NCBI GenBank assembly: GCA_016873495.1
Contig: VGXC01000012.1
Span: forward strand, 8,434 to 72,433
Length of the DNA stretch: 64,000 nucleotides
Source of the DNA: Nitrospira sp.
GTDB taxonomy: Bacteria > Nitrospirota > Nitrospiria > Nitrospirales > Nitrospiraceae
Direction: 5' to 3'
The position numbers were made by a program, and so were the translations under genes. Below, in pieces: positions 15,383-37,763 of the stretch. The number at the start of each line of letters is the position of its first letter. Within the stretch, counting starts at the first letter, position 1. The notes below the pieces were generated by a model. That model saw nothing but the letters and a program-made list of their open reading frames with translations, was not told the origin of the DNA and ran no database searches.

Positions 15383-15491
15383 GCGTTATGATCCTAACTT
15401 TCTGAACTTCCGACTCCCGTCGGATGCTGATGGTAAACGCGATGGCGGTGCGACCCTCTCCGGGCCGTCATGCCCGCCGAAACACCCGGTC

Positions 15492-19064: not shown

Positions 19065-19077
19065 AAGACTAATTATG

Positions 19078-19166
19078 AATGTTGAATCGTGAATTTTTCA
19101 TTGTGGGCCTGGCCTCGTCAATCACAGGCCGAGCAAATCATCATTCAACATTCACAATTCAACATT
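19078..19166 (-). promoter_or_regulatory. AT-rich structured intercistronic element (DAHP synthase-tyrA spacer)
   Basis: 16 of 17 bp long-range stem AATGTTGAATCGTGAAT (19078-19094) / ATTCACAATTCAACATT (19150-19166). It encloses a GC hairpin GGCCT...AGGCC. Both arms are built from TGAAT/ATTCA words. Confidence 0.5.
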
Positions 19167-19170
19167 ACTT

Positions 19171-20184
19171 TCAGATTTCCCGCCCGACCGCCGCCGCGAT
19201 TTTCTTGAGATCTTGCATCAATTCCTTGAACTTGCTCGGCTTGATAGATTCTTCCCCGTCGCAAAGGGCGCATTCGGGGTTGGAATGGACCTCGATCAAG
19301 AGACCGTCCGCGCCGGCGGCGATGGCGGCCTTGGACATCGGCGCCACCAAATTCCACTTGCCCGTGGCATGACTGGGGTCCACGATGACGGGCAAATGGG
19401 ACAGTTCCTTGAGCGTCGGCACCGCGGCCAGATCTAGGGTGTTCCGGTACTGGGTTTCGAACGTGCGGATGCCGCGCTCACACAGCATCACATTGCGGTT
19501 TCCGCGGGACATGATGTACTCGGCGGAGAGGAGAAACTCCTTGATCGTGGCCGAGAGCCCCCGTTTCAGCAACACAGGCTTGTCATAGGCGCCGACTTCC
19601 TTGAGCAGTTCGAAGTTTTGCATGTTGCGGGCGCCGATCTGGATGATGTCCGCCTTCTGCAGAAACAGCTCGATGTCGCGGGTGTCCAGAATTTCGCTCA
19701 CCACCGGCATGCCCGTCTGCTTCTTGGCCTCGATCAGGTAGTCCAGCCCTTCCCGTCCCACGCCCTGGAAGGAATAGGGCGACGTGCGCGGCTTGTAGGC
19801 TCCGCCCCGCAGGATGCTGCCCCCGGCGGCCTTCACCTCATGGGCAATGCCGACGGTCAGCTCAAGCTTCTCGACCGCGCAGGGCCCGGCCATGATCACC
19901 ACCTTCTGGCCGCCGACCTTGACGCCGTTCACATCGATAACCGTGTTGTCCTTCTTGAACTCGCGGCTGACGAGTTTCCACGGGGCCAGGATGGGCGTGA
20001 CGCTTTCCACGCCGGGAAACGCGGTGATCGGCTGATTCTGGAGGATGCGATCGTCGCCGATGACGCCGATGATCGTCCGCTCCTCTCCCTGCGTCATGTG
20101 CGATTTCAGGCCCAGCTCGCGCAGCCGGTCCAGCAAGTGATCGATCTGGGGCTCGGTGGCTTCGGGTTTCAGCACAATAATCAT
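19171..20184 (-). CDS. aroF: 3-deoxy-7-phosphoheptulonate (DAHP) synthase, class I-beta with N-terminal regulatory domain
   Basis: Start at [21 protein letters not shown]8PS-like core with [23 protein letters not shown] and VDPSHA motifs. The ORF-track N-terminal extension to 20448 overlaps hisC and is rejected. Confidence 0.9.
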
Positions 20185-20221
20185 GACAACCTCATGCGCT
20201 TGATATATCCGACCCTTTTGT

Positions 20222-21301
20222 TCATGTTCCGACGACCTTCTTGAGAGCGGCCAGAAACTGGCGGTTCTCCTCGGGAAGACCGATCGTGACGCGCACCATG
20301 CGCCCTTCGATATGGCGGACGATGACGCCCTCACGCAGGAGGGCTTGAAAGACCTCCCGCCCGTCGCGGCCGGCGTCGAAGTAGAGAAAATTTGCTTGGC
20401 TCGGCAGCGGCTGAAAACCCAGCGCGGCGAGCCCGGCCCGAACCGCACCCATCTCCGACTGGTTCAGCGCGCGGCTGCGCGCCACATGCTCCTCGTCGGC
20501 CAAGGCCGCCAGGGCCGCCCGTTGGGCCAGACTGTTGGCGTTGAACGGAGGTCGGAGGCGATTCAGGTATCCGGCAATCTCGCCCGTCGTCAAGCCATAG
20601 CCGATGCGCAGACCGGCCAGGCCGTAAATCTTGGAGAAAGTACGGAGCACGATCGCGTTGCGCCCTTGCTTGACATAGGCGAGGCTGTCCGGAAACTCGC
20701 GGCTCTGCACATACTCGTAATAGGCCTCGTCGAACACCACGATCACCGACTCCGGCACGCGCGCCATTAACCGGGTTACCTCGTCCGCGGTCACCATGGT
20801 TCCGGTGGGATTGTTGGGATTGCACAAGAACAGGAGCCTGGTCCTCGGCGTGACGGCCTCCACCATGGCGGCCAGGTCATGGCGGCCCTCCTGCGTAGGC
20901 ACGATGACGGGTTGCCCATGCGCGGCGGTCACTTCCATCTTATAAATCACGAAGGTCTGATCGGCCATGACCGCTTCGTCGCCGGGTGCCAGGAACGTCC
21001 GCGCCAGCAGGCCGATGATCTCGTCCGACCCGTTGCCCAGGATGACCTGCTCCGGCTGAACCTTCCAGCGATCCGCCAAGGCCACGCGCAGCTTGTGGGC
21101 GCCTCCGTCGGGATACCGATGCAACGTAGCCGTGGCCTCGGCAAGCACGGCCAGAGCCTTGGGCGAAGGCCCAAGCGGGTTTTCGTTGGACGCCAGCTTG
21201 ATAGCCTTGGGAATCCCCAGTTCACGTTCCAGCTCTTCCACAGGCTTGCCGGGAACGTAGGGGGTCAGGGACGCGATATCGGGATGAATTTTGAGCGGCA
21301 T
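20222..21301 (-). CDS. hisC: histidinol-phosphate/aromatic aminotransferase
   Basis: Start MPLKIHPDIASLTPYVPGKP. PLP-Lys motif TFSKIYGLAGLRIGY. Confidence 0.9.
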   Translation of the reverse strand: MPLKIHPDIASLTPYVPGKPVEELERELGIPKAIKLASNENPLGPSPKALAVLAEATATLHRYPDGGAHKLRVALADRWKVQPEQVILGNGSDEIIGLLARTFLAPGDEAVMADQTFVIYKMEVTAAHGQPVIVPTQEGRHDLAAMVEAVTPRTRLLFLCNPNNPTGTMVTADEVTRLMARVPESVIVVFDEAYYEYVQSREFPDSLAYVKQGRNAIVLRTFSKIYGLAGLRIGYGLTTGEIAGYLNRLRPPFNANSLAQRAALAALADEEHVARSRALNQSEMGAVRAGLAALGFQPLPSQANFLYFDAGRDGREVFQALLREGVIVRHIEGRMVRVTIGLPEENRQFLAALKKVVGT

Positions 21302-21306
21302 AGCGT

Positions 21307-22389
21307 TTAGTTGTGGGCCGGGTACGATCCGAGAATCTTCATGAACAGGCACCGGCCCTTGATCTCCTCCAGTGCCTTCTTCACCGGTTCCTCTTCGATA
21401 TGGCCTTCGACATCCACGAAGAAGATATATTCCCAGGCCTTGCGACGGGACGGCCGGGATTCAATTTTGGTCATGTTGAGGCCGTGGGAGGCGAAGGGCC
21501 GCAACAGATCGTAGAGCGCGCCGACCTTGTCCTTCACCGAGATCATGACAGAGGTCTTGTCTTTGCCGGTCCGCTCCGGCGCTTTCTTCGAGAGGACCAA
21601 AAAGCGGGTAAAGTTGTGGACATTGTCCTCGATCCGCGCCTTGATGATCTTCAAGCCGTAGAGTTGCGCCGCCAACTCGGAGGCAATGGCCGCAACCGTG
21701 GGATCGGTGGCGCAGATTTCGGCAGCCCGGGCCGTGCTGGTGACTTCCGAGACCGGCACCTGCGGCAAGTTGGTCTCCAGCCAGTGACGGCACTGGGCGA
21801 TCGGCTGCGGATGCGAATAAATTTTTGTGATGTCTTCGAGACGCCCGGTTTTCGACAGCAAGTTGTGGGACACCTCCAGGAGCACCTCGCCATAGATCAG
21901 CAGGGTTGAATCCACGAACATGTCGAGGGTGTAATTGACGACGCCCTCAGTCGAGTTTTCGATCGGCACCACCCCGAAGTTGGCCCGCCCCCGCTCCACC
22001 TCGTCGAATACATCCTTGATGCTGTTGACCGGGACATACTGGGCCGAAGCCCCGAATTTCTTGATGCAGGCCAGGTGAGTAAACGTGGCAGCCGGCCCGA
22101 AGTAGGCGACCTTCTGAGGCCCTTCCAGCGAGAGGGAGGCAGACATGATTTCCCGGTAGACGGGGCGGATCGCATCGTTGGGGAATGGGCCCTGATTTTG
22201 GGCCATGAGGCGGTTCACAATTTCCGCTTCCCGACCGGGCGTATGCAGGTTCGCGTTGCTGTCCGATTCCTTCTTCAGTTTGCCGATTTCGATGACGGAC
22301 TTGGACCGTTCGTTCAACAGACGCAGGATCTCGTCGTCGATCCGATCGATCTCCTTCCGGAACTTCTGGATGTCCTGCTGGTTCACCAT
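21307..22389 (-). CDS. pheA: bifunctional chorismate mutase / prephenate dehydratase
   Basis: Start MVNQQDIQKFRKEIDRIDDEILRLLNERS (chorismate mutase), then the dehydratase domain (TRFLVL) and an ACT domain (ESRPS). Confidence 0.92.
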   Translation of the reverse strand: MVNQQDIQKFRKEIDRIDDEILRLLNERSKSVIEIGKLKKESDSNANLHTPGREAEIVNRLMAQNQGPFPNDAIRPVYREIMSASLSLEGPQKVAYFGPAATFTHLACIKKFGASAQYVPVNSIKDVFDEVERGRANFGVVPIENSTEGVVNYTLDMFVDSTLLIYGEVLLEVSHNLLSKTGRLEDITKIYSHPQPIAQCRHWLETNLPQVPVSEVTSTARAAEICATDPTVAAIASELAAQLYGLKIIKARIEDNVHNFTRFLVLSKKAPERTGKDKTSVMISVKDKVGALYDLLRPFASHGLNMTKIESRPSRRKAWEYIFFVDVEGHIEEEPVKKALEEIKGRCLFMKILGSYPAHN

Positions 22390-22586
22390 AGGTAGCTCAG
22401 CCGGCCACAGCCTGTCACTGCCTGCGACCAGACAGGAAATGGTACAGGAAGCAAACTGGCTTTGCAAGATTTATCAATAGGATTCGAATGGTTGGGGGGG
22501 CCGCAACTCTGAGCGTTCGGCCACCTTTTCGGAGCCGGTTCGCAGAGGATTTTGACTGTGCACGCTGACGGCTGCCGGCTTCTTGG

Positions 22587-25685: not shown

Positions 25686-26024
25686 TCAAGCACGGGTGCC
25701 GGGCAGACTTGCCGGAGATGCGAAACGCCGCGCCGTTTTCGCCGCATCCAGGATGCTCCAGATCGAAAGGGCCAACAACGGCAGCGCCCGAAGCAGGATG
25801 GCCCAACTGTCTTGCGGCGGCGCGCCGGCAGCCAGGCCTTGCACGAGGCCGATGAGTCCGACGGAGACCCCCAACGCCCCGTCGATGACCAAGCCGGCAA
25901 TGAGCAGCGCCGCTCCCGTTCCCCATTGCCGGCAATAGAATTGACCGAGCCCGGGCATCAACCCGGAGAGGATGGCGGCCAGCATAGGACTTTTCGAGCG
26001 GTGGGAAGAAAGAGGCATCGTCAT
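25686..26024 (-). CDS. small membrane protein, PGLGQFY-motif paralogue 2
   Basis: PMLAAILSGLMPGLGQFYCRQWGTG...SIWSILDAAKTAR. Paralogous to the upstream gene. Start ATG 26024 or 26018. Confidence 0.55.
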   Translation of the reverse strand: MTMPLSSHRSKSPMLAAILSGLMPGLGQFYCRQWGTGAALLIAGLVIDGALGVSVGLIGLVQGLAAGAPPQDSWAILLRALPLLALSIWSILDAAKTARRFASPASLPGTRA

Positions 26025-26058
26025 CGCCGGACGACCAAGCCGAGCGTTCCTGCGTCGG

Positions 26059-26379
26059 CTATGCAGGGCCTCGTGCCTTGCGGAATGCATCCATGGCGCT
26101 CCAAATGATGCAGCCGATGAGGAACGGCCCGACGGTAAAGACCATGTCTTCGCGGCTCCAGAGCGGCGTCTGGTTGTAGGCGAGATTGGCCTTCGACAAG
26201 GTGCGAAGGCCGTTGGCCAAAATGAGCACGGCGCACCCGGCGCCCAAGAGAAAGCCCACTCCCTTTCCGATTTCGCGATTATAAAACTGGCCGAGGCCCG
26301 GCAGGAGCACCGACAGTATGGCGGCAAGGAGGGGGTTTTTGGGGGGTGTCTTGCGCGATTGGCGTCGTATGCGTGCCAT
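26059..26379 (-). CDS. small membrane protein, PGLGQFY-motif paralogue 1
   Basis: MARIRRQSRKTPPKNPLLAAILSVLLPGLGQFYNREIGKG...IIWSAMDAFRKAR. Confidence 0.6.
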   Translation of the reverse strand: MARIRRQSRKTPPKNPLLAAILSVLLPGLGQFYNREIGKGVGFLLGAGCAVLILANGLRTLSKANLAYNQTPLWSREDMVFTVGPFLIGCIIWSAMDAFRKARGPA

Positions 26380-26463
26380 GGCCCTTCGCCATTGCCGGTG
26401 GGTCGTAGTCAGCGGCCCCCACCACAAGGCCCCAAATCTTTCTCTGCGGGAACGATCCGGCCG

Positions 26464-27213
26464 CTACATGAACTTCATGAACTTGTCTTTGGCCTCGTCC
26501 ATCACCTGCGCCGTGATCGTGGTGGCGCCGCGCTCCTTCGCCAGTCGCTCGATCTCGCGGCGGGCCATGGGGCGGATGAAGTCCGGGATGTTTTCCAGCC
26601 GTTTCTCCGCGTCGGCCGACCAGGTGACGCCGTTCGAGTCGTTCTTGGAATCGTCCATCACCTGCAGCGTGATGGTGGTTAGGCCGTGCTTGCGGGCATA
26701 GGCCTCGATGCTGCTCTGCACCATCGGCTTGACGAAGGAGGGGAGCCGATCCAGCTTCTCTTTCGCATCCGGGGTCCAGGTAAAGTCCGACGTGCCGGGC
26801 TGGCTGCTGGACGTCAACCCCATCTGCGCCACCATGGCGGAGAAGGGACAACCGGCCGCCTTCTCGCCTTCTTTCGCCGGCGTCTCAGCGCTCGCCGTGA
26901 CGCCCGCCGCAGATGCGGCCGGCTTGCCGGCTTGAATCTTGTCATTCAAATAGGCCGCCATCTGACCGGACCCGGCGAGGGCCTCGTCTTTGAGCGTGCC
27001 GCGGGTCATTTCAAAGGGTTGGGCCGCCTCGGTGCGGCCGCCCAGCTTGACGCCGAGCGAACTGACCATCTGCGTCTCGCCCGGGTTCGTCACCATCGAG
27101 AACTTGGCGCTGCACGAGGGGCAGGCGAAAAAAACGCCCAGCGACCCTTCCGCAGGCTTTTCCACCTTTTCGAAGGTCATGTAGGTTTCACAATTCAAAC
27201 AGACGAATTTCAT
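26464..27213 (-). CDS. zinc-ribbon protein with two PCP_red domains
   Basis: N-terminal CLNC...CPSC ribbon. Then WTPDAKEKLDRLPSFVKPMVQSSIEAYARKHG and WSADAEKRLENIPDFIRPMARREIERLAKERGATTITAQVMDEAK, which closely resemble the ChlB/BchB C-terminal domain. Confidence 0.8.
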   Translation of the reverse strand: MKFVCLNCETYMTFEKVEKPAEGSLGVFFACPSCSAKFSMVTNPGETQMVSSLGVKLGGRTEAAQPFEMTRGTLKDEALAGSGQMAAYLNDKIQAGKPAASAAGVTASAETPAKEGEKAAGCPFSAMVAQMGLTSSSQPGTSDFTWTPDAKEKLDRLPSFVKPMVQSSIEAYARKHGLTTITLQVMDDSKNDSNGVTWSADAEKRLENIPDFIRPMARREIERLAKERGATTITAQVMDEAKDKFMKFM

Positions 27214-27282
27214 ATGGAACTCCTTGGGGAAGTTGTCAGTATTCAGGTCTCGGCCTACTGAAGACTGATCACTGAGAACTGT

Positions 27283-28200
27283 CTACAACTTTTCCGCCAG
27301 CACTTTCTTATAGTCCAGCATCGCCTGGACCCGTTCCGCGATTTCCTGATAACGCTGGATAGTCGGGTACGTAGCATCCAACAGCGGCAGGCCCTTGTCG
27401 AAGGTCCGAGCCAGCGTCCGATCGAAGGGCACGCGGCCCAACAAGGGCACGTTCAACGCGTCGCACATGGCGTCCGTATCCCCCTCGAACAGTTCGTGCT
27501 CGACGCCGCAGGACGGGCACCGGAACCGGCTCATGTTCTCCACCATGCCCAGCACGTGGATCCCCATGTCCCTGGCATAGGTCACCGATTTCTGCACGAC
27601 GTCGGAGGCGACCTCGGAGGGCGTGGTCACGACAATCGCCCCGGCCAGGTCCGGGATGAATCCGGCGATGACCGGCGGCTTGTCCGCCGCGGCCCCAGGG
27701 GGCAAGTCGGTCAGCAGGTAGTCCAACTCACCCCATATCACATCCGCCAGGAACTCACGGATCACGTTCATTTCCATGAGCCCAAGCCAGACCGGGCTCA
27801 AGTCCATCGGCCCTTTCCAGCGCACGGGAGAGGCGGCCCCCAGGAAAAAATCCATGGAGGCGACTTTGACCCCTAGCGGGCCGACCGGCGGGATCGCCCC
27901 TTCCGGCGTGATGGTCAGCGCTTGCCCGTGCATGCCCAGCATGCGCGGCACGCAGGGCCCGTTCAGGTCCACATCCAACAGCCCCACTTTGTGCCCCAGA
28001 CGGGCCAGCGCGAGCGCTAGGTTTACCGTGGTCATGCTCTTGCCGACCCCGCCCTTGCCGCTCATGACTACCAGCTTGTGTCGGATGCCGGCCATGCGGG
28101 CCTGCACCTGCCTCATCTGCGCGGTAATCTGCTGCACGACCTTGGCGTCGTCGCTGTATTGGAGCTTGCCGAGGATCGTTTTGAGGTCATGACCGGCCAT
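27283..28200 (-). CDS. apbC: Mrp/NBP35/ApbC family Fe-S cluster carrier ATPase
   Basis: Start MAGHDLKTILG. Deviant Walker A SGKGGVGKS and the ENMS.F.CPSCG motif. Confidence 0.9.
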   Translation of the reverse strand: MAGHDLKTILGKLQYSDDAKVVQQITAQMRQVQARMAGIRHKLVVMSGKGGVGKSMTTVNLALALARLGHKVGLLDVDLNGPCVPRMLGMHGQALTITPEGAIPPVGPLGVKVASMDFFLGAASPVRWKGPMDLSPVWLGLMEMNVIREFLADVIWGELDYLLTDLPPGAAADKPPVIAGFIPDLAGAIVVTTPSEVASDVVQKSVTYARDMGIHVLGMVENMSRFRCPSCGVEHELFEGDTDAMCDALNVPLLGRVPFDRTLARTFDKGLPLLDATYPTIQRYQEIAERVQAMLDYKKVLAEKL

Positions 28201-28357
28201 AAAACACTCCCCAGAGGTTGTCGGCCGTCGGTAACGGCCCGCTCTTAATCGTCGTAGGTCAGCTGCTGATTGCTTCTTAGCATCGGCACGGTAACACAGG
28301 GGTTTCGAGGGAGTCAAACCAGCTCCGCGGGATCAGCCATCGGCTGTCAGCTCTTGC

Positions 28358-30202
28358 TTAAATCGAGTATTGAAACGTCGGCTTGCCCCCGATCGCCTGC
28401 GCCAAGACGCCTCGTTTCTTGAGTTCTTCGATGATCCGGCGCGCGGCCTCATCGAAATCCTTCGGCCCGGCGAATTGAAGGTCCGTGTCCGAGGGGGGCT
28501 CCTCGGCCACCTTGCTCATGTGCACGGTGATGACCGGAGCCGGATGCACCAAGGTACGGATCGCTTGGGCGGCTTGCGCATAGGCCGACCCGAACGCCTT
28601 GGTGGTCGAGACCACGATCAGACCCGTGTCGATGAGCAGCCTGGCCACTTCGCCATACCGGCGCGCCATCTCATCCGTCCCGGCCAGGTCCGATCCGGCC
28701 AGGTCCGCATCCAGCCCGCGTCGGAGGTTTTCCCCCTCCAACAGATAGGCATGGCGGCCCTCGGCCACCAGCACCGACTCCAGCTTGCGGGCCAGGAAAG
28801 ACTTGCCGGTCTGCGGCGCTCCGGTGAGGAGCACTACCGCCGCCCGATGGCCGTAATGCTGCGCCCGTTGTTCCGCTCCGACTTCCCCTTTGACCCAGGC
28901 AAAATCTCTCCGCCGGGCTTCATCGCGCAGAAACTCCTGCTCGTCATGCACCAGCTCGGTGATAATGCCCCCGCCGGCGATATCGTACTCGTCTACGAGC
29001 ACAAAGCGACCGGTGGACTCGAACGCATGATACGGATCGAAGGCGATCGGAGATTTCGTCCGCAGGGTCAATTCCGCTACCTGGTTTCGTTCGACGACGT
29101 TCCCTCCCTGCCGTTGGTCCAAATCCGCCGTGTCGACGATCCGGTTGATCGTTGCCACTTCACAGTCCACCTCGTGGGTGGCCAGACGAAGCTGGTACTT
29201 CCGGCCGCGCTCCAACGGACGCCGGCCCAGCCAGAACAGATTGACCCGAAAGGAGGTGGACACGAGCGGGATGGACTCCTGGCGGGACGCAATCTCGCCG
29301 CGCTCGATGAAAATCTGCTCGTCCAGCGTGATTCCGACGGACTGTCCCGCTGTGGCCTCGGTCGGAGAGGGTTCGACGTTGAAGGCTTCTACGGATTTGA
29401 CGTTGGCCGACTTGTTGGACGGGGAAAAGACCAGCCGGTCGCCGACTTTCAAACGGCCGGCGGTCAGCCGGCCGGCGATGATCCGCCGCGCGTCGAACTT
29501 GTAGACGTCCTGGACCGGGAACCGGAGCGGTTGCTCGCCGCGGGCGGTTTCCTTGCGAAACGCCTCCAGCGTCTCAAGCACGGTCTGGCCCTGGTACCAG
29601 GCCATGTGGGTGCTGCGGGAGGCAATGTTGTCGCCGAGCTTCGCGCTCACCGGGATGACGCGCTCCGGCACCACCTTCAACTGGCCCAGGAAGTCCCGGT
29701 ATTCCTTTTCGATGCCGTCGAACACATCCTGGCGGTACCCGACCAGGTCCATCTTGTTCACCACCACCGCGACCTGCTTCACGCCCAGTAGCGACAGCAG
29801 ATATCCGTGCTTCTTGGACTGCTCCTTCACGCCCTCCAGCGCATCGATCAGCAGCAGCGCCGCCTCCGCGCGGGCGGCGCCGGAGATCATGTTCTTGAGG
29901 AACTCCTTGTGGCCGGGCGCGTCGATGATGATGTATTGGCGCCCCTTCCACGTGAAAAACGTGCGGGCCGTGTCGATCGTAATGCCTTGCTCTTGCTCTT
30001 CCAGGAACGCGTCGAAGAGGAAGGCGTATTCGAACTCCTTGCCCTGCTGCCGGCAGATGGCCTGCACCTTCTCCAGCTTCCCGTCGGGGAGCGAGCCGGT
30101 GTCGGCGTAGAGTCGCCCCAGCAGCGTGGATTTTCCATGATCCACATGCCCGACAATCACAGTGTTCAGGTTTTCCGTCGGTCTGGCTTGTACGGTCGCC
30201 AT
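28358..30202 (-). CDS. cysN: sulfate adenylyltransferase subunit 1 (CysN) fused to an APS-kinase-like domain
   Basis: Start MATVQARP. GTPase motifs [14 protein letters not shown] and NKMD. The C-terminal roughly 185 aa carry a P-loop (GAPQTGKS) and [10 protein letters not shown], but the rest of the CysC motif set is divergent. Confidence 0.93.
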
Positions 30203-30333
30203 TTGGTTATCCAATGAATTCTGTCGCGTGGCGCGACACCTTTTCATGGGCCAGGGAAATCATTGCCTGCTGGTACGACTGGCGCGCCACTGCCGGTTGG
30301 CCGACAAACCCGGCATTTTCGATCGCGCCACGG

Positions 30334-31131
30334 TTACATGTACCCGTCTTTGCGTAGGAGTTCCATCCCGCGCCCTTCATCCTGCGCCCGTCCAGACCGC
30401 TCGGCCACCGTGGTATGGCGCAGCTCTTCGATGATGGCATCCACGGTCTTGGCCGTGGACTTGATCGGGGTGGTGCAGGGGGCGCAGCCCAGACTGCGGT
30501 ACCTCGTGCCGTCGCCCCTATCGAGATAGAGGTCGATAAAGGGGATATTCTCGTACTTGATGTATTCCCAGATGTTGATCTCCGTCCAGTCCAGGAGCGG
30601 GTGAATCCGGATGTGCGTGCCCGGCGGGAAGGCGGTCTTAAACTGATCCCAGAGCTCCGGCGGCTGATCCCGGAAGTCCCAGTCCCCGTGCTTGTCGCGC
30701 GGCGAGAAGTATCGCTCCTTGGCCCTGGTACCCTCTTCATCGGCCCGCACGCCCAAAATGATGCCCGTGTAGCCCTTTTGCTCGATGAGCTGTTTCAGCC
30801 CGTTGGTCTTGAGCGCCGTGCAGCAGGTCACACGGCCCATCGTATGGTTCATGCCGGCCGCGAGGGCCTCCTTGTTCTGACCGACGACCAGATTCAACCG
30901 CCATTCACGGGCCAGCCGGTCCCGGTACTCGATCATCGCGGGAATCTTGTAACTGGTGTCCACATGGAGCAGCGGGAACGGCACGTGGCCGAAGAAGGCC
31001 TTGCGGGCCAGCCACAAGAGCACGGTCGAGTCCTTCCCCATGGACCAGAGCATGGCCAGGTTGTCGAAGTGCTTGTAGGCTTCGCGAAAAATGTAGACGC
31101 TTTGGTCTTCGAGCTGGCGGAGATGCTTCAT
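30334..31131 (-). CDS. cysD: sulfate adenylyltransferase subunit 2
   Basis: 265 aa, [13 protein letters not shown]...CCTALKT. 4-nt overlap with the upstream gene. Confidence 0.95.
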
Positions 31132-32195
31132 GCGCGCTCCTCGGAGCTGATGGCCGATAGCTGATGGCTTCCTGACAATTCCTCCAGCTTCCGTGCCGCC
31201 GCTCCGCTGTCCAGCGTCTGCTGCGCCAGCGGAACACCGGCTGTAATGGATTGGGCCTTGCCGGCGGCATAGAGCAGCATGGCCGCGTTCATGACCACCC
31301 AGTCTCGCTGCCCACCGCGCACCTGATTGTGCAGGATGCGTCGCAACAAGGTCGCCTCCTGATCCAGTTGCCCCGGAGGAAACCCGGACATGGCCTGAAA
31401 GCTCCCCGGCGGAAGGCCACAGTCCTTGGGCGTCAGCGTCAAGGGCACAATGCGTTCGTCCCGCACTTCGAGCAGCCTGGTTACCGACGCAATGGACAGT
31501 TCCGGCTCGCCCTCCGACCCACGGACGATCAATGCCCGCTTGCTGCCCAGCATAAGGAGCGCCTCGGCGGTCTTTTCGAAGTAGGGGGGATGGCTCAGGC
31601 CGATCACTTGCGAGGCAGCCCGGGCCGGGTTCAGCATCTTGGCCACCGGATGGAACAAACTCCGCACCCCCAACTCGCGCCGCAGATCCAGAAACCGGGC
31701 GACCGGCGGATGGTAGAGGGCGATATCCAGATAGACCAATCCTTTTGCCGTCAGTTCTTCGGCCGCCTGCTTGGGCGGCAGGTCGGTCGGAAGGCCGAGC
31801 TGGGCCAGAATTTCGACGGTCCCGGGCCGTTCCGGAATGCCTTCATGCCCATGCATCAGGATAGAAGCCCCGGCGGCGGCAGCCACGATCGCCGCGCCTG
31901 CGGACACGTGAAAGGTATCCTGTTTCCCCGCATACGTCGGCAAATCCACCAGCGGCAGGTGACGCGGCACCGGGAGGGGCGGCACATACTCACGCACCGC
32001 CGAGGTGAAGGCCGCCAACTCCGTGATCGATTCCATCTTTACGCGCATGGCGAGGAGAAAAGCGCCGACCTGCACCGGAGTGGCCTGGCCCTCGACGAGC
32101 ATCCGCATCGCCTGTTTGGCCTCTTCCCAGGTCAGGTCCTTGGAGGCCTTCTGGCCCTTGCCGATTTTGGCGATGCATTGCGAGAATTCCGTCAT
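31128..32195 (-). CDS. anthranilate phosphoribosyltransferase-like (glycosyltransferase family 3) protein with divergent active-site motifs
   Basis: 355 aa, colinear with TrpD ([31 protein letters not shown]...). GTGGD is replaced by [12 protein letters not shown] by MHGH, and GLDE by SEGEPE. Confidence 0.8.
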
Positions 32196-32220
32196 GCGGG
32201 GTCAATCCTCTCCGCTCGAG

Positions 32221-32634
32221 TTAAAACGTCAACACTTGGTCCGCCGGCGCGACCGCTTCCCTCCAGAAGGCCTCGGCCTTCTGCACCTCGTCCAGCTCGG
32301 GCAACAACTGATCCACGGTGATCTCGAAGAATTCGATCGTCTCGCGGCAGATCGAGAGCTTCACGTCCCCCGCCTCTTTGACCTCACGCAACACCGCCGG
32401 CAAATCGAGCCGTTTCCGCTCCTGCAGCATGTTGCGCACCTTCGACTCGCGCCCCTTATAGGCATCCGAAAACGTCAACTGCTTCAGCCTCTCGTGCGTC
32501 AATTTGGACGCCGCCTCGTCTCGAAACAAGACGTTCACGTGCATGCCGGACGCAGCGGCGACACGAATTAATTCGCAGGCCTGCAAGAGATTGTTGTAGC
32601 TTCCCCCGGTCACGATCACGGCCAGCTTCTTCAT
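32221..32634 (-). CDS. DsrE/DsrF-like (DrsE_2-type) protein
   Basis: 137 aa, MKKLAVIVTGGSYNNLLQACELIRVAAASGMHVNVLF... with a single conserved-looking Cys in KLSICRETIEFF. Confidence 0.65.
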   Translation of the reverse strand: MKKLAVIVTGGSYNNLLQACELIRVAAASGMHVNVLFRDEAASKLTHERLKQLTFSDAYKGRESKVRNMLQERKRLDLPAVLREVKEAGDVKLSICRETIEFFEITVDQLLPELDEVQKAEAFWREAVAPADQVLTF

Positions 32635-32666
32635 TCTTTATCTCCTGCCTCGATACGCTCGGCAAT

Positions 32667-32713
32667 CAGCCTTCAGCTCTCAGCCTTGCTACTGGCTGAC
32701 ACTGAAAGCTGAC
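32667..32713 (-). promoter_or_regulatory. intercistronic hairpin (cysH - dsrE-like spacer)
   Basis: Imperfect 16-bp stem TCAGCCTTCAGCTCTCAGCC / GGCTGACACTGAAAGCTGA. The arms are built from TCAGC/GCTGA words. Confidence 0.45.
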
Positions 32714-32715
32714 AG

Positions 32716-33435
32716 CTATTTGTGCAAGCCACACTCGGTTTTGGCGAAGTTCTGCCACCGGCCCGAGCGCGGATCGGCGCCAGGCGCGACCGGAGCCGTG
32801 CAATGGGTGCAGCCGATGCTGGGGTAGCCGCGGTCATGCAACGCGTTGTAGGGCACCTCGTAGACCTTAATGTAGGCCCAGACCTCCGCCACCGTCCAAC
32901 GAGCCAGCGGGTTGAACTTGACCAATTGAAATTTCTTGTCCCATTCCACCAAGCCCGCATTGGCGCGTGTCGGCGCCTGATCGCGCCGGATGCCGGTGAT
33001 CCAGGCCTCGTAACCGCCCAACACCCGGGCCAACGGCTCGACCTTGCGCAGGTGGCAACATTGGTCCGGCTGTTTGGCCCAGAGCTCCGCTCCATATTGC
33101 GCCGCTTGCTGTTCGGGCGTCAGCAGGGACTTCACCTGGATCACTTGCGCGGGGCGCAAGCCATACTTGGCGACAATCCGGTCCCGCACCTCTTGGGTCT
33201 CCGGGAATAAAAAGTCCGTATCCAGGTAGAATAGAGGCGCACCTGGATCCAGCCGGTGGATCATGTCCACCAGCACCACGTCTTCCGCCCCGAAGCTGCA
33301 GGCCAACACGATATGCCCGCGATACCGCTCTAGGGCATAGGCGAGCACCTCTTGCGGCTGCTTGGACTCGAAGGAGTCGCTCTGCGCCTTCAAATCCTCA
33401 TCGGAGGGTCTGGTCCGGACCGCCTGATCCGCCAC
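32716..33435 (-). CDS. cysH: adenylylsulfate (APS) reductase, Fe-S type assimilatory CysH
   Basis: 239 aa with the CC pair (DQCCHLRK), CxxC (GCTHCT) and C-terminal ECGLH. This is the signature set of [4Fe-4S] APS reductases rather than PAPS reductases. Confidence 0.92.
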   Translation of the reverse strand: MADQAVRTRPSDEDLKAQSDSFESKQPQEVLAYALERYRGHIVLACSFGAEDVVLVDMIHRLDPGAPLFYLDTDFLFPETQEVRDRIVAKYGLRPAQVIQVKSLLTPEQQAAQYGAELWAKQPDQCCHLRKVEPLARVLGGYEAWITGIRRDQAPTRANAGLVEWDKKFQLVKFNPLARWTVAEVWAYIKVYEVPYNALHDRGYPSIGCTHCTAPVAPGADPRSGRWQNFAKTECGLHK

Positions 33436-33444
33436 GGTTTCCCT

Positions 33445-35955
33445 CTAGCCTTCGACCTTTTCCACCAGCACTTTGAAATGGGCTGCTTCCGGCTCCAACG
33501 GCTCTTCCAATAGAATCTTGTGTCCGTCGTTGCGCAGACTCATCGGCACGTTTTTGATCGGCTCGCCTGCGTCCAACCAGACTTCCAGCCGCTCGCCCAC
33601 ATCCATCATCTCCAGCTTCAATTTGGTCTTCACATAGTTGAGCGGACAGGCCACGCCGCGGAGATCGTACACCGATGCGTCCGGCCCTGCCGCAACGGAC
33701 TGAGCCGGGGCCGAGGGCTTGGCCTCTGCCGCCTGCTTCGCGGACACCTCGGCCTCGCCGGCTTGCGCCAGCTTCAAGTCCTTGCCGATCTGCTCGGTTG
33801 CCGCCCGGCACACTTCCACGAAGCCGCGGGCGAAGGCGATCTTAGCCTGCGCGAATTCCGGACTGCTATCCTTCTGACCCAAGTCACCCGCCTGAGCGCC
33901 CAGGTTCTTATACCGGGCCAGCACGAGGCTGCGCTGGCCCAGCCGCCGCTCGAACTCGATAAAAGTTTCGGCATCGGTGGCAGGATCCAGCCCCTCGGTG
34001 ACCAGCAACGCCTTGGCCGCGGCCAGCACGGCCCGGTAGGCTTTGTTGACCGAGACGGAATACTGGTGCTTCTCGGCCAGCAACTTGGCCTGATAGAGCT
34101 CCTGCTCCGCCTCGAGGATCCGATCGCCGATCATCTCCAGAGCGCCGCCGGCGCATTCGCCCGGTCCCAGATCCTCCAGGATAAATTCCTCTTCCCCTTC
34201 CCAGTCGTAATAAAAGGTCGGGTCCTCTTCGAAGGTCGGCACGATCGTATAGGGAATCAGCTCTTCTTTCAGCGCGACCTTGCCCGCCCGCGTGATGAAA
34301 GAGGACAGGCTCTCGCCCTGACGCCGGTCCCGGCGATAGACCGAGAGCAGATGCGTGATGGCGGCCGGCACGCTCTTGGCCGGCAGTTTCACGGTCATCT
34401 GACCGATCTTGGCCGTCCCGTTCACCTGTCCGCCCAAGTGCAATTCATAGTGGGGCGCCACATGGTCGCCCAGACGCTTGCCCACGCCGTGCAAACCGAT
34501 CGTCGCGATGTGATGCTGGGCGCAGGAATTATGGCAGCCGCTGATCTTGACGCTGACCTCCTTCAAGTCTTCGGGCACACGACCGGGTGGAAAGACCTCC
34601 GCCATAGCCCGCGCCAATCCCTTGGATGAGGTAATGCCCAGTCCGCAGGTGTCGGTGCCAGGACAAGCGATGATGTCTTCCACCAACTCTGCGCCCGGAT
34701 CGCCCAATCCCTGTGAAACGAGGTCTTCGTAAAGGGCCGCCAGCCTTGATTCCGGCACCCACCGAAGCACCAGGTTCTGGTTGATCGTGGTCCGCAAGTT
34801 CCCATTGGAATAATCCTCCGCCAGGTCCGCGACGAACTGCATCTGCCCGGCGGTGAGGTCGCCCATCTGGAGCTTGATCGCGGCCACCGCATAGCCCGGC
34901 TGTTTCTGGGGAACCACGTTGGTCCGTTTCCACATCTGATAGGGTGTTTCAGCTGACCCAAGGCCGTGGCCCGATGATCCGTTGCCATTGCCGTTTCCAT
35001 TGCCCGCTGAAGCGGATGCCGGAGTCGGCATGATGAGGGGCACCGGCTCGTCCGCATACGGGAGTAGCTTGATGGGGGCATGATCGGGCCTGGCATGGCC
35101 TAGACTGACGTAGGCCTCTTCCCACCGCCGCTTGAATTCCTCAAAGCCCAGCTTGTCGATCACGAACTTCATCCGGGCCTTGTTGCGGTTCTTGCGATTG
35201 CCCAGCGTATCGAACACTTTGATGACCGCCTCGACCGTGGGGATCAATTCGTTCATCGGGACGAACTCCCGCAACAGCTGCGCGATGCGCGGGGCCGAGC
35301 CGAGCCCGCCCCCGACGACCATGCGGAATCCGATGGCGCCGTCCTCGCGCTTGGCCGCCAGCAGTCCCACGTCGTGGATCGGCGTCAGGGCGCAGTCGTG
35401 CCGGCAGCCGGAGAAGGCGATCTTGAATTTCCGCGGCAGGCTCTGGTTAAGCGGGTTCCGCAGGAGATGCAAGGCCACGGTCTTGGCATAGGGCGTCACG
35501 TCGAACACTTCACCCTGGCAGACGCCGGCCAAGTGACAGGCCGTCACGTTGCGCACCGTGTTCGCGCAGGCTTCCCTGGTAGTCAGGCCGACTTCGGCCA
35601 GCCCGCGCATGACCGTGCCGACATCCTTCAGTTCGACGAAGTGGAGCTGGATGTCCTGGCGAGTCGTGACGTGGCCGACGCCGGTCCCATATCGGTCGGC
35701 TAGTTCGGCCACCCGACGCAGTTGATTGGCATTCAGCCCGCCGAAGGGAATCTTGATCCGCACCATTTGCACGCCGGGCTGGCGCTGCCCGTAAATGCCA
35801 TGTTGCAACCGAAAGGGCTTGAACAGGTCGTTGGACACATCCCCGGCCTGCAGCCGTTGGGCTTCGCCTTCGAAGGTTTCGATCTCTTCGAGAATGTCAG
35901 GCGGAATCGGGGCGGTCTGTATGACCACCGGCTGTATAGTCCGTGGAGTGCTCAT
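33445..35955 (-). CDS. sir: ferredoxin-type assimilatory sulfite reductase fused to a C-terminal all-alpha module and a TusA-like domain
   Basis: 836 aa. Siroheme/[4Fe-4S] ligands are CPGTDTCGLG and SGCHNSCAQH. There is a (GN)4 insertion at aa 318-325. The last 74 aa are VYDLRGVACPLNYVKTKLKLEMM... (TusA-like). Confidence 0.9.
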   Translation of the reverse strand: MSTPRTIQPVVIQTAPIPPDILEEIETFEGEAQRLQAGDVSNDLFKPFRLQHGIYGQRQPGVQMVRIKIPFGGLNANQLRRVAELADRYGTGVGHVTTRQDIQLHFVELKDVGTVMRGLAEVGLTTREACANTVRNVTACHLAGVCQGEVFDVTPYAKTVALHLLRNPLNQSLPRKFKIAFSGCRHDCALTPIHDVGLLAAKREDGAIGFRMVVGGGLGSAPRIAQLLREFVPMNELIPTVEAVIKVFDTLGNRKNRNKARMKFVIDKLGFEEFKRRWEEAYVSLGHARPDHAPIKLLPYADEPVPLIMPTPASASAGNGNGNGNGSSGHGLGSAETPYQMWKRTNVVPQKQPGYAVAAIKLQMGDLTAGQMQFVADLAEDYSNGNLRTTINQNLVLRWVPESRLAALYEDLVSQGLGDPGAELVEDIIACPGTDTCGLGITSSKGLARAMAEVFPPGRVPEDLKEVSVKISGCHNSCAQHHIATIGLHGVGKRLGDHVAPHYELHLGGQVNGTAKIGQMTVKLPAKSVPAAITHLLSVYRRDRRQGESLSSFITRAGKVALKEELIPYTIVPTFEEDPTFYYDWEGEEEFILEDLGPGECAGGALEMIGDRILEAEQELYQAKLLAEKHQYSVSVNKAYRAVLAAAKALLVTEGLDPATDAETFIEFERRLGQRSLVLARYKNLGAQAGDLGQKDSSPEFAQAKIAFARGFVEVCRAATEQIGKDLKLAQAGEAEVSAKQAAEAKPSAPAQSVAAGPDASVYDLRGVACPLNYVKTKLKLEMMDVGERLEVWLDAGEPIKNVPMSLRNDGHKILLEEPLEPEAAHFKVLVEKVEG

Positions 35956-35983
35956 GAGAATTGCTCCAGTTTAATATTCGGTC

Positions 35984-36018
35984 ATTGTCGATGGACGTAG
36001 TCCTCGTCAATCGACAAT
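35984..36018 (-). promoter_or_regulatory. intercistronic hairpin (rrf2 - sir spacer)
   Basis: 9-bp stem ATTGTCGAT (35984-35992) / ATCGACAAT (36010-36018), with flanking GTCAAT/GTCATT words. Confidence 0.4.
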
Positions 36019-36036
36019 CCAGCCACCGTCAATGAT

Positions 36037-36489
36037 TCAAATGTGGTACATGAGGGTCCGCTCGCGATCGAGCTGCTGGTGCCGTTCTGCCAGCTCGCGA
36101 AGCGTCACGCCATTCAACACACCCAGCTCCGCCTGACGGACCCGTTCCCAGACGTCGGCTAAGAGCAGGTCCGGCCTCGATGGCCCCGTGATGTGACGCC
36201 CCGCCCCCCGATGGCTGCTCGGGGCCGAAAGGGTGCCGTCCAACGCCTCCACGATATCCGCCAGTGAAATTTCTTCCGGCAGTTTGCCTAAAAGATAGCC
36301 TCCCTGAGCGCCGCGTAGGCTATCGACCAGTCCGGCGTTCTTCATCGCGTTCAGGACTTGCTCGAGAAAACGGAGCGGGATGGCCTGACGCCGGGCGATC
36401 GCCTTTGCCTGAATAGGCGAGGTGCCGTCATTTAAGGCCAAATCCAGCGCCGCCAGCACTCCATATGTAGCCTTCAAGGATATTTTCAT
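36037..36489 (-). CDS. Rrf2 family transcriptional regulator (Cys-free, CymR-like)
   Basis: 150 aa, MKISLKATYGVLAALDLAL...IPLRFLEQVLNAMKNAGLV. Contains no cysteine, so it cannot bind Fe-S as IscR or NsrR do. Confidence 0.9.
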   Translation of the reverse strand: MKISLKATYGVLAALDLALNDGTSPIQAKAIARRQAIPLRFLEQVLNAMKNAGLVDSLRGAQGGYLLGKLPEEISLADIVEALDGTLSAPSSHRGAGRHITGPSRPDLLLADVWERVRQAELGVLNGVTLRELAERHQQLDRERTLMYHI

Positions 36490-36865
36490 GAGTCGCGATT
36501 CATGAGTATTCCGATGGGAAATGACATTGGCCTATCTATACAGCCCCATTGCCTGAAATGTCAAGTCGGTTTTTCCTCGCGTGGGGCAGGGTTTGTCCCT
36601 TGCCTCATTTCCATGGTTCGGAATCGCTGTGCCATGGTTTCTGCTGGGGAGACTAGGTCCCCGTCCCCAAGTTTTGGCACCAAGGCCAGGGGAAATACCC
36701 CTCTCGTTCCACGCCGCCACGAGCGATGAAATATTTCTGACTCCTCAGCTCCGGGACAACAAAAACCGGCACGGCTGACCAATTTTTCGGCCAGCTCCTG
36801 AATTTGATTCGGAAGGCACCCAAAGAAATCCGGCCGAATTGTAAGAATCGACGACCGCGGCATCG

Positions 36866-36981: not shown

Positions 36982-37566
36982 ATGCCGACCCGAACAGCCG
37001 CCGTCACCATTCTTTTGCTCACTGCCGATCCTGACCTCCAGGCCCAGATCAAGCGTGACTTCAAGGACACGGCGGTTACGGTGGCCAAGGATCTGGCATC
37101 GTTGCCTCGGGCTTCAGCCAAGCGCACGTTCGACGGCGTGATCATAGAAACCAAACGGAACCAGCCCCAGGAATTGGCGGAACTCTCCCGACACATCGAC
37201 CCGACCAAAACGGTGGTCGTCGCGGGATCGCGCGCAGTGCTCCGGCAGACCCACCGCATGTTCCACACCCTCTCGAACGGCGCCGGCCCCTCGGCCAACC
37301 ATGCCGATCCGAACTTCTCACTCGACGACTACATCAAGTCAAAATTGGGAGATTTTGTCAGGGGAATGAAGAACGGCTCCGCCCGTGATTTGCATCCGAT
37401 TTTGATCAAGGCGGTGGAAGAACCTTTGATTACGCTTGTGCTGAGGGAAACCAACGGCAATCAGATGCAAGCGGCGGATTTACTGGGCATGAATCGCAAC
37501 ACCCTCCGCAAGAAAATCACCGAGTTCCGGATTTCCGTCAAACGAGAGCGAGCGCGGCGAACGTAG
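36982..37566 (+). CDS. Fis-family HTH regulator with degenerate receiver-like N-terminus (no AAA+ domain)
   Basis: C-terminal NGNQMQAADLLGMNRNTLRKKITEF (Fis/NtrC-type HTH). In the N-terminal ILLLTADPD...FDGVIIETK, Glu sits where the phospho-acceptor Asp would be. Confidence 0.75.
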   Translation: MPTRTAAVTILLLTADPDLQAQIKRDFKDTAVTVAKDLASLPRASAKRTFDGVIIETKRNQPQELAELSRHIDPTKTVVVAGSRAVLRQTHRMFHTLSNGAGPSANHADPNFSLDDYIKSKLGDFVRGMKNGSARDLHPILIKAVEEPLITLVLRETNGNQMQAADLLGMNRNTLRKKITEFRISVKRERARRT

Positions 37567-37688: not shown

Positions 37689-37763
37689 AGGCGCGTAGCT
37701 CAGGGGGAGAGCGCTACCTTGACACGGTAGAGGTCGACGGTTCAAGACCGTCCGCGCCTACCA
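37689..37763 (+). tRNA. tRNA-Val (anticodon GAC)
   Basis: Manual cloverleaf: acceptor AGGCGCG/CGCGCCT, D arm GCTC/GAGC, anticodon arm CTACC-TTGACAC-GGTAG, T arm GACGG-TTCAAGA-CCGTC. Encoded CCA. Confidence 0.93.

Follow-up and report, generated by a model that had tools for sequence, protein, structure and literature searches.

A 64,000-nucleotide (nt) stretch of a Nitrospira metagenome-assembled genome (MAG; contig VGXC01000012.1), analyzed at full length and called the window below, carries a sulfate-assimilation operon of the adenosine 5′-phosphosulfate (APS) pathway, with eleven minus-strand open reading frames (ORFs) between positions 25686 and 36489. The assignment rests on strong family membership and on gene context for sulfate activation, APS reduction, and sulfite reduction. 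Its sulfite reductase, Sir, belongs to a large multiphylum clade with an invariant GxGEC cysteine arm at the end of the reductase core, followed in this case by a HEPN-fold helical domain and a TusA domain. The cysteine arm together with the fused TusA domain suggests that reduced sulfur leaves Sir bound to protein and not as free sulfide. The main value of the locus lies in this widespread and apparently undescribed Sir clade.

An exhaustive HMMER search of 1.84 billion cluster representatives with Sir returned 9,512 relatives, and architectures were counted in the best 150 clusters at 50% identity. The core was followed by GxGEC, a helical linker, and TusA in 59 clusters, and by GxGEC and an extension without TusA in 24. 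In another 52 clusters the core ended in ...GxGEC[AS]x, and the remaining 15 were other architectures or fragments; the linker was called a HEPN fold only where it had been modelled. Sir-TusA fusions are widespread and not confined to the genome of the window, and the named members of the clade come from Nitrospirota, NC10, Chloroflexota, Chrysiogenetes, Deltaproteobacteria, and one archaeal MAG. Four residues of the Nitrospira protein, E600 and C601 in the arm and C770 and P771 in the TusA domain, are invariant in 56 diverse fusion proteins that share 33 to 100% identity, and E600 and C601 are also invariant in 54 Nitrospirales-like sequences. The GEC arm is absent from the solved structure of Mycobacterium tuberculosis NirA, and alignments with plant nitrite reductase (NiR) end before the arm region. 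A literature search found no paper on this Sir clade or on a Sir-TusA fusion, nor any on TusA or DsrE in a cys operon of Nitrospira.

The C-terminal region of Sir was examined with an AlphaFold (AF2) model of residues 575 to 836. The model shows an arm of low predicted local distance difference test score (pLDDT) at the GEC motif, a helical bundle with pLDDT above 90, a disordered linker, and a confident C-terminal domain. The bundle was called as HEPN by Pfam (E-value [E] 9.8e-6) and by Foldseek against 2hsb, with a target-normalized template modelling score (TMt) of 0.80 and a root mean square deviation (rmsd) of 2.1. We considered an RNase function for it and dropped the idea; as no Rx4-6H motif could be seen by eye, the domain was taken to be a spacer. 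The C-terminal domain matches TusA in sequence (PF01206, E 1.2e-14, 54 bits against a cut-off of 28.6) and in predicted fold (Escherichia coli TusA 3lvj_C, TMt 0.84), and it has a conserved Cys-Pro pair at the N terminus of helix 1. The TusA assignment of the preliminary description, and likewise its DsrE assignment, was upheld: each protein has the hidden Markov model (HMM) match, the predicted fold, and an invariant Cys.

The reductase core is of a known type. Pfam finds PF01077 (E 2.6e-59) and PF03460 (E 4.5e-39) in two stretches each, and the ligands of the sirohaem-[4Fe-4S] center, C431, C437, C474, and C478 (CX5C...CX3C), are present and invariant in relatives. The two repeats and this ligand set place Sir among the ferredoxin-type assimilatory sirohaem sulfite/nitrite reductases (Sir/NirA); no NCBIfam equivalog cut-off was reached by the protein. 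Sulfite, not nitrite, is the likely substrate judging from context, in that cysH with cysDN or sat adjoins sir in the operonic loci. The N-terminal half contains a second CX5C...CX3C set, made up of C140, C146, C184, and C188. None of its four Cys varies among 54 Nitrospirales-like orthologues, about 36 of 56 diverse fusion proteins have C140 and C146, and plant NiR has no Cys at these positions. It may form a second [4Fe-4S] or sirohaem site. The low-complexity GNGNGNGNGSSG insert between the two halves is not kept among relatives.

We then delimited the conserved unit. The preliminary description had reported a co-directional array of eleven genes. The ORF list agreed with all eleven genes and their positions, and Pfam and NCBIfam matched each domain assignment. 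The 4-nt overlap between the trpD-like gene and cysD was also found, and the other gaps measure 9 to 86 nt. The same-strand run goes on, however, into yebC, ruvA, and ruvB, so that co-direction alone defines no unit. A profile of the DsrE-like protein, whose copy in the window is 100% identical to an NCBI "Nitrospira sp." protein, was searched against species-representative genomes and gave 72 loci; 71 of them bear a Nitrospira, Nitrospirales, Nitrospiraceae, or Nitrospirota label, and one unclassified bacterium and one Nitrospinota entry also occur. The order rrf2, sir (HEPN-TusA), cysH, dsrE-like, trpD-like, cysD, cysNC on one strand was found in 41 of the 41 sufficiently flanked loci, where protein identities fall as low as 41 to 50%. 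Median intergenic gaps of -24 to 90 nt indicate tight packing.

Because that scan was seeded with the DsrE-like protein, it was biased, and metagenomes were therefore scanned with the Sir C-terminal region. This yielded 47 loci that were classed as Nitrospirales-like from sequence identity and had a readable gene next to cysH on its downstream side. A dsrE-like gene follows cysH in 11 of them and a trpD-like gene follows it directly in 32, after a gap of about 15 nt, while 4 have neither. The second scan corrected the idea, drawn from the DsrE-seeded loci, that the seven-gene core is universal. The conserved unit is rrf2, sir (HEPN-TusA), cysH, an optional dsrE-like gene, trpD-like, cysD, and cysNC. 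The expected synteny of the accessory genes with cys genes in relatives was thus confirmed by the locus comparison; as to the co-occurrence of the Sir-TusA, DsrE-like, and TrpD-like genes, it holds for trpD-like (43 of 47 loci) and only in part for dsrE-like (11 of 47).

Whether the four remaining genes belong to the system was judged from the same loci. In distant Nitrospirales, the genes flanking the seven-gene core are unrelated, and of 40 loci, 23 have the mrp and PCP_red genes next after cysNC, whereas the other 17 lack both and again have unrelated flanking genes. One could suppose that all eleven genes, including Mrp, PCP_red, and both membrane proteins, make up one system linking sulfate reduction to Fe-S assembly. 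The co-directional arrangement with short gaps is in line with this, as are the 23 loci just mentioned and the presence of Mrp and PCP_red genes in two Sir-TusA operons that use another APS reductase and sulfurylase (L148 and L149, described below). Those two operons, however, come from class-level relatives that share flanks with other Nitrospiria, so that the genes may be neighbors there through inherited synteny. The likely Mrp start lies about 157 nt beyond the stop of cysNC, the strand runs on into yebC and ruvAB, and the two PGLGQFY membrane ORFs are barely conserved, with matches at only 8 to 11 loci at 37 to 61% identity. We give the eleven-gene system little chance. The membrane ORFs are probably outside the system, and the membership of Mrp and PCP_red is uncertain. 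Elsewhere, PCP_red forms the C-terminal domain of subunit B of protochlorophyllide reductase; its protein is always paired with Mrp here, and the two genes overlap by 4 nt in L148.

The first three steps of the route follow from strong family membership: CysD and CysN activate sulfate to APS, CysH of the Fe-S type reduces APS to sulfite, and the ferredoxin-type sirohaem enzyme Sir reduces the sulfite. For what comes next, we propose that Cys601 on the arm would reach the sirohaem pocket, take up the reduced sulfur as a persulfide (sulfane sulfur), and pass it to Cys770 of the TusA domain; where the dsrE-like gene is present, the sulfur would move on to Cys96 of the DsrE2-like protein. Candidate final acceptors are cysteine synthase, carriers of the ThiS/CysO type, and Fe-S or thio-cofactor pathways, and little free sulfide would be released in this aerobe. 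The Mrp and PCP_red proteins may mature the Fe-S centers of Sir and CysH, and the TrpD2-type protein would be a conserved partner that carries no sulfur on Cys. We infer, with an even chance of being right, that assimilatory reduction by the APS pathway is joined here to a relay of sulfane sulfur through the Cys arm, TusA, and DsrE2. A more explicit version, which we hold as tentative, is modelled on DsrAB-DsrC: Sir's own Cys arm would attack partly reduced sulfur bound to the sirohaem, the true product, in place of free sulfide, would be sulfur at the S0 level held either as a protein persulfide or as a trisulfide, Cys601-S-Cys770, and TusA would distribute the sulfur to DsrE2-type and ThiS/CysO-type carriers and to cysteine synthase.

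Published work bears on the chemistry. Four assimilatory sulfite reductases were reported in a 2026 study to release S0 as the direct product (PMC13188885), which makes a relay over arm and TusA chemically reasonable; the study also notes that assimilation has no known DsrC-like carrier (PMC13188885). Transfer from TusA to DsrE is established in sulfur oxidizers (PMC11094781). The statement in the preliminary description that TusA-type carriers are not known from assimilatory reduction needs a change in view of YeeD, a member of the TusA family that acts in assimilation, by way of thiosulfate uptake (PMC11073785).

The DsrE-like protein matches PF02635 (30.5 bits against a cut-off of 22.7) as well as PF13686 (DrsE_2), and Cys96 is invariant in its family. 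In a profile comparison with 2qs7 (SSO1126; E 9e-10), Cys96 aligned with the Cys of 2qs7, and the AF2 model (pLDDT 94.6) matched the same structure in Foldseek (TM-score 0.88, 28% identity); 2qs7 is a DsrE2B protein (PMC4175335). The protein thus has the DsrE fold with a Cys at the canonical position, and it stays below the DsrE2 equivalog (NF047629, 21 bits against a cut-off of 210). Its gene has no genetic link to Dsr/Hdr sulfur oxidation, its neighbors being cys, sir, and sat genes in all loci. Activity as a carrier is plausible from the predicted fold and the Cys position, and homology gives it no support.

The spacer between cysH and the dsrE-like gene holds a hairpin rich in TCAGC/GCTGA, with a folding free energy (ΔG) of -35.8 kcal/mol and a z score of -5.2; none of 200 shuffled sequences folded equally well. 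This cluster of repeats is the sole one in the window. Its sequence is not kept in relatives, which have other repeat hairpins in the cysH-dsrE or the rrf2-sir spacer. Since the spacer between cysH and the trpD-like gene is only 15 nt in loci that lack the dsrE-like gene, this gene seems to come and go together with the hairpin as an insertion/deletion cassette.

Several points weigh against the relay. To our knowledge, loading of a thiol from sirohaem-bound sulfur is unproven chemistry for assimilatory enzymes. The Cys-Pro motif of the Sir TusA domain reads CPxN, which differs from the CPxP typical of TusA. The model assigns no role to the TrpD2-type protein. Five of the eight Sir-TusA genes found outside Nitrospirales stand alone, with no cys or relay neighbors. 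For the regulatory part of the picture, the link of the palindromic box upstream of rrf2 (see below) to the CymR site of Bacillus subtilis is tentative. The dsrE-like gene is missing from 36 of the 47 unbiased Nitrospirales-like loci and is therefore not essential to the route. Finally, the closest characterized relative of the DsrE-like protein is the only DsrE2B that has been assayed; in vitro, six sulfur compounds all failed to react with it, and neither TusA nor DsrE3A passed anything to it (PMC4175335).

The dispensability of the dsrE-like gene in most relatives and the inertness of DsrE2B in vitro would also suit a reading in which no sulfur is carried at all. The two Cys would then gate an oxygen-sensitive sirohaem/Fe-S site or shield it as a disulfide lid, with the DsrE-like and TrpD2-type genes as loose passengers; a host that is an aerobic nitrite oxidizer, as inferred from the Nitrospira assignment, fits such a redox switch. 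TusA, however, is a dedicated sulfur-carrier fold whose catalytic Cys-Pro is invariant here. DsrE-family, DsrEFH-like, and ThiS/ThiF genes recur beside Sir, which a mere switch does not predict, and the trpD-like gene, which shares nucleotides with cysD, has been retained in 43 of 47 loci. We regard the switch as distinctly unlikely.

Recurrence of relay genes was examined in other lineages, in which the class Nitrospiria rests on named taxonomy for the L148 and L161 proteins and on shared flanks or sequence similarity for the others. A dsrE-like gene stands beside Sir/TusA in three loci of other Nitrospiria that use the sulfurylase Sat. One is a CysH-type operon with Rrf2, CysH, Sir-TusA, DsrE-like, and Sat (L164). 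In the second (L161), Sir ends after the HEPN domain and is followed by a separate TusA gene, a dsrE-like gene, and Sat. The third (L150, 9-3996) encodes Sir-HEPN-TusA, three DsrE/F/H-like proteins, a TusA-like protein, a DsrE2-like protein, and Sat, and it has the richest sulfur-relay set that we observed beside any Sir of the clade. L161 and the NC10 locus L079 both encode TusA separately from Sir. A functional link is suggested by TusA being fused in some lineages and split off in others, and by DsrE-family genes recurring next to Sir even though the types of APS reductase and sulfurylase change. As the Nitrospiria lineages are interrelated and share flanking genes, the recurrences are not fully independent.

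Two further loci, L148 (4752-13513) and L149 (2922-13148), which show about 50% identity, contain Rrf2, TauE, AprA, AprB, Sir-TusA, Sat, Mrp, and PCP_red, without a dsrE-like gene. They place an APS reductase of the dissimilatory type inside an otherwise assimilatory-looking operon under Rrf2 control. For the window, a pathway running in reverse, that is, oxidatively, is very unlikely because the window has a CysDN sulfurylase and an assimilatory CysH; CysDN sulfurylase is GTP-driven. Only the AprAB/Sat-type operon of L148 might run in the oxidative direction.

Outside Nitrospirales, the other three of the eight Sir-TusA genes adjoin cysH together with cysDN or sat. One such operon (P0382 locus) encodes Rrf2, a CysM-like protein, ThiS, a pyridoxal phosphate (PLP) enzyme of the Cys_Met_Meta_PP family, ThiF, JAB, Sir-TusA, CysH, CysD, and CysNC. 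The NC10 locus L079 (1401-15900), whose Sir ends in the GEC tail, encodes Rrf2, CysK, a ThiS-ThiF fusion, a YeeE-type transporter, two free TusA proteins, CysM, JAB, TauE, CysH, and Sat. Sir proteins of the clade are thus found in one operon with genes for ThiS/CysO, ThiF, JAB (Mec-like), and CysM-like proteins in two lineages, which gives a possible destination for the sulfur and suggests carrier-protein cysteine synthesis fed from Sir. A 327-amino-acid (aa) gene product encoded between sir and cysH in the NC10 locus was tried as a hidden TrpD-like protein and had no match to the TrpD-like protein; by eye, it reads as an exported repeat protein, possibly a beta-propeller. One stand-alone Sir-TusA gene (L081) is flanked by the same pheA-to-sppA block as lies at 12689-22467 in the window, which hints at old conserved synteny.

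The NC10 cluster also speaks for a reading in which the thiols of the arm, TusA, and DsrE-like protein work upstream of the sirohaem site. They might resolve the Cys-S-sulfonate of CysH in place of thioredoxin and channel sulfite into Sir, or they might split thiosulfate in the manner of YeeD, with the sulfone sulfur going to Sir as sulfite and the sulfane sulfur kept as a persulfide. The YeeE-YeeD complex was the best Foldseek match of the Sir C-terminal model, and the NC10 cluster has a YeeE-type transporter and two free TusA genes. The GEC arm resembles the ECGLH tail of CysH, and only 9 nt separate sir from cysH. In addition, YeeD decomposes thiosulfate on a conserved Cys (PMC11073785), and DsrE3A and TusA carry thiosulfonate groups in Metallosphaera (PMC4175335). 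On the other hand, neither the window region nor the 72 Nitrospirales loci showed a YeeE-type transporter, although no systematic search was made for one. Many Sir-TusA genes occur alone, without cysH, and in every architecture the arm lies at the C-terminal end of the reductase core, a position that suits capture of the product equally well. We consider a role on the substrate side unlikely.

The most constant accessory gene is the trpD-like one, present in 71 of the 72 loci of the first scan and in 43 of the 47 of the second. From the 4-nt overlap, it is predicted to be translationally coupled to cysD. The preliminary description had called its product a degenerate TrpD; we found a conserved motif set of the TrpD2/YbiB type in place of decay. 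The GTGGD loop of TrpD is replaced by P-x-Y-[AG]-x-K, the KHGN loop by M-H-G-x-E, and the DE metal site by P-E, and these three replacements are themselves invariant in 70 of 70 sequences; the canonical TrpD motifs, among them the strictly conserved GTGGD that binds phosphoribosyl pyrophosphate (PRPP), have described roles (PMC9835598). BLASTP against E. coli YbiB (4muo), the founding member of TrpD2, gave E 1e-27 and 28% identity over 232 aa, and motifs shared with YbiB include IGKG..DL, LP[ST]Y.G, HG..E.P, and G[ST]EGE. With a TrpD fold, no PRPP motif, and TrpD2 signature motifs, the protein is of the TrpD2 type; its site has been remodelled and conserved, and the enzyme has not decayed. Its score against the YbiB model is below the cut-off (NF006005, 157 against 185), and no conserved Cys was found among the orthologues of the family.

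Every named Nitrospira or Nitrospiraceae entry listed (P0121-P0240) is labelled anthranilate phosphoribosyltransferase by NCBI and JGI. The product could in principle be the host's ordinary anthranilate phosphoribosyltransferase, in the operon by chance; besides those names, it passes TIGR01245 (trpD; 228.1 bits against a cut-off of 199.05), and its top matches in the PDB are TrpD enzymes (E 3e-48, compared with E 9e-25 for YbiB). Yet GTGGD, KHGN, and the first residue of DE have been exchanged for another invariant set that agrees with TrpD2/YbiB, no trp genes lie within the 64-kb window, and the gene overlaps cysD. An ordinary TrpD is extremely improbable. We judged the TIGR01245 pass to be a false positive because the PRPP and metal motifs are lost, and the trpD label is probably a systematic misannotation across Nitrospirales, probably because of the TIGR01245 cut-off. 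Known ligands of YbiB are DNA and the GTPase ObgE, the latter through its acidic tail (PMC10123104). By analogy, one might speculate that the TrpD2-type protein partners the CysD/CysN GTPase complex.

We also looked for regulatory elements. The preliminary description saw hairpins in the longer spacers and no obvious promoters. Only the cysH-dsrE hairpin beats chance, the other spacers folding no better than shuffled sequences, and a sigma-70-type promoter followed by a conserved palindromic box precedes rrf2. TTGACA-N17/18-TAtAAt was found upstream of rrf2 in about 50 related loci. The box in the window, TTTCCCATCGGAATA, belongs to a family with the consensus aTTCCTATCGGAATAsTAGGAAt over about 50 related loci; 8-mers taken from it turn up in as many as 36 of 50 upstream regions, and the exact 13-mer occurs once per locus, always in the same place. 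No further good copy of the box was found within the window, and a related box precedes rrf2 of the NC10 cys cluster. An inverted repeat between rrf2 and sir was rejected as an operator, as it is not conserved, the spacer measures 20 to 28 nt in some relatives, and it folds no better than shuffles. A generic scan for promoters and terminators gave nothing above chance and missed the rrf2 promoter through its -10 rule. A search for riboswitches and known RNAs between 24000 and 38500 gave none at E of 1 or better, except one tRNA.

The regulator itself is an Rrf2-family protein whose best named NCBIfam match is CymR (NF047409), at 98 bits and under the curated cut-off of 195. All of 51 orthologues have zero or one Cys and lack the three Cys that serve as cluster ligands, indicating no cluster binding of the kind found in IscR or NsrR. 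Sir operons of other Nitrospiria, of NC10, and of one unplaced lineage likewise begin with an rrf2 gene. Rrf2 and the box are probably an autoregulated repressor-operator pair controlling the operon.

The enzymes upstream of Sir in the pathway are of the expected types. CysH scores 235.4 bits against a cut-off of 235.3 with TIGR02055 and has the CC...CxxC and ECGLH motifs of Fe-S-type APS reductases. CysN carries a C-terminal domain (aa ~466 to 629) that scores 62.5 with TIGR00455 (apsK), below the cut-off of 138.7 for APS kinase, and its kinase motifs are changed from LDGDN to LEGEN and from FISP to VSTT. This APS-kinase-like domain is probably noncatalytic, which fits an APS-reductase pathway with no need for 3′-phosphoadenosine 5′-phosphosulfate (PAPS). 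All features are collected in Table 1.

Table 1. Positions in the window of the operon, its protein domains, and neighboring features
Feature	Position	Strand	Remarks
tRNA gene	37689-37760	+	upstream of thrS
Fis-type helix-turn-helix ORF	36982-37566	+	small; divergent from rrf2
Sigma-70-type promoter	36535-36564	-	upstream of rrf2; TTGACA 36559-36564, 18-nt spacer, TATAGA 36535-36540
Palindromic box	36507-36521	-	between -10 element and rrf2 start codon
Rrf2-family regulator	36037-36489	-	Cys-free, CymR-like; PF02082 E 6.6e-31
sir	33445-35955	-	NIR_SIR x2, HEPN, TusA
Sir core, aa 1-590	34186-35955	-	two NIR_SIR_ferr/NIR_SIR halves
Second Cys set of Sir	35392-35538	-	N-terminal half
Low-complexity insert of Sir, aa ~315-335	34951-35013	-	between the two Sir halves
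Flexible arm of Sir	34141-34173	-	GPGEC motif; Cys601 codon 34153-34155
HEPN-fold helical domain of Sir, aa ~603-722	33790-34149	-	between arm and TusA
TusA domain of Sir, aa ~760-833	33457-33678	-	Cys770-Pro771 from codon 33646-33648
cysH	32716-33435	-	Fe-S-type APS reductase; PF01507 (PAPS_reduct) E 2.4e-50
Intercistronic hairpin	32635-32715	-	TCAGC/GCTGA-rich; between cysH and dsrE-like gene
DsrE2B-like protein	32221-32634	-	optional operon member; Cys96 codon 32347-32349
TrpD2/YbiB-type paralogue of anthranilate phosphoribosyltransferase	31128-32195	-	PF00591, PF02885; Glycos_transf_3
cysD	30334-31131	-	sulfate adenylyltransferase small subunit; NF003587 362 bits, cut-off 195
cysNC	28358-30247	-	CysN GTPase subunit with degenerate APS-kinase-like domain; TIGR02034 358, cut-off 336
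APS-kinase-like domain of CysNC	28358-28850	-	
Mrp/NBP35-type Fe-S carrier ATPase	27283-28317	-	likely start M40 at 28200; PF10609 (Mrp-type ParA) E 1.7e-72
Zn-ribbon protein with two PCP_red	26464-27213	-	PF08369 x2
PGLGQFY membrane ORF 1	26059-26427	-	small; from translation
PGLGQFY membrane ORF 2	~25686-26024	-	small; from translation
Aromatic amino-acid/housekeeping block	12689-22467	-	pheA, aroF, tyrA, aroA, cmk, acyltransferase, rpsA, sppA

In the textbook pathway, sulfite reductase releases free sulfide that is used by cysteine synthase. With its invariant Cys arm, frequent TusA fusion, and DsrE-family and ThiS/ThiF neighbors, the Sir clade would be a natural candidate for the missing DsrC-like carrier of assimilation. 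If this is true, the GEC-arm clusters of several phyla would be natural fusions of reductase and carrier, and they would define a sulfide-free route from sulfate to cysteine. Such a route would explain how aerobic nitrite oxidizers avoid the release of sulfide, which is assumed to harm the haem and Fe-S enzymes of their respiration. The analysis also flags a gene apparently misannotated as trpD throughout Nitrospirales, and the conserved promoter and putative operator offer a handle on sulfur regulation in genetically intractable organisms.

Compared with the APS-pathway operons of known type, such as that of M. tuberculosis with CysDN, Fe-S CysH, and SirA/NirA, the Nitrospira operon has the same enzyme families in the same reaction order and embeds TrpD2-type and DsrE2-type genes among them. 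Relative to the M. tuberculosis NirA structure, Sir adds the C-terminal Cys arm, HEPN, and TusA, a region that the plant NiR alignments do not reach. As in the CymR-ruled operons of B. subtilis, an Rrf2 protein without cluster ligands heads the operon, albeit one that scores under the CymR cut-off. The CysO-CysM-Mec-MoeZ system of M. tuberculosis has counterparts in the ThiS, ThiF, JAB, and PALP genes of the Sir(-TusA) operons of two lineages, which could take over the sulfur of TusA; no such genes are in the window or in the Nitrospirales loci examined. The TrpD2-type protein resembles E. coli YbiB in having the TrpD fold without the PRPP motif and in its signature motifs, whereas it is nearer to true TrpD and stands in a cysH/cysD context, that is, a cys operon, and not in the LexA/dinG context.

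The closest parallel to the proposed mechanism is DsrAB-DsrC, in which a sirohaem reductase likewise works with a conserved Cys on a flexible C-terminal arm that takes up partly reduced sulfur (PMC13188885); by analogy, the Sir arm may do the same. In Nitrospira, however, the arm is part of the reductase polypeptide, the context is assimilatory, and there is no DsrC, DsrMKJOP, or DsrD. The second Cys of DsrC lies ten residues away on the same arm, whereas that of Sir is on the TusA domain. The relay also has features in common with TusA-TusBCD of tRNA thiolation and with the Rhd-TusA-DsrEFH-DsrC and TusA-DsrE3 systems of sulfur oxidizers, namely the TusA Cys-Pro, the canonical Cys of the DsrE fold, and the adjacency of the genes. 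It differs from them in being attached to an assimilatory reductase and not to a desulfurase or a sulfur-oxidizing system, and in that its DsrE partner is optional and belongs to the DsrE2B type, a group in which the one protein tested showed no activity. Finally, YeeE-YeeD (TsuA-TsuB) shares with Sir the use of a TusA-family domain in sulfur assimilation, and YeeD is its best structural match, but the Nitrospira TusA domain hangs on the reductase, with no transporter fused or adjacent.

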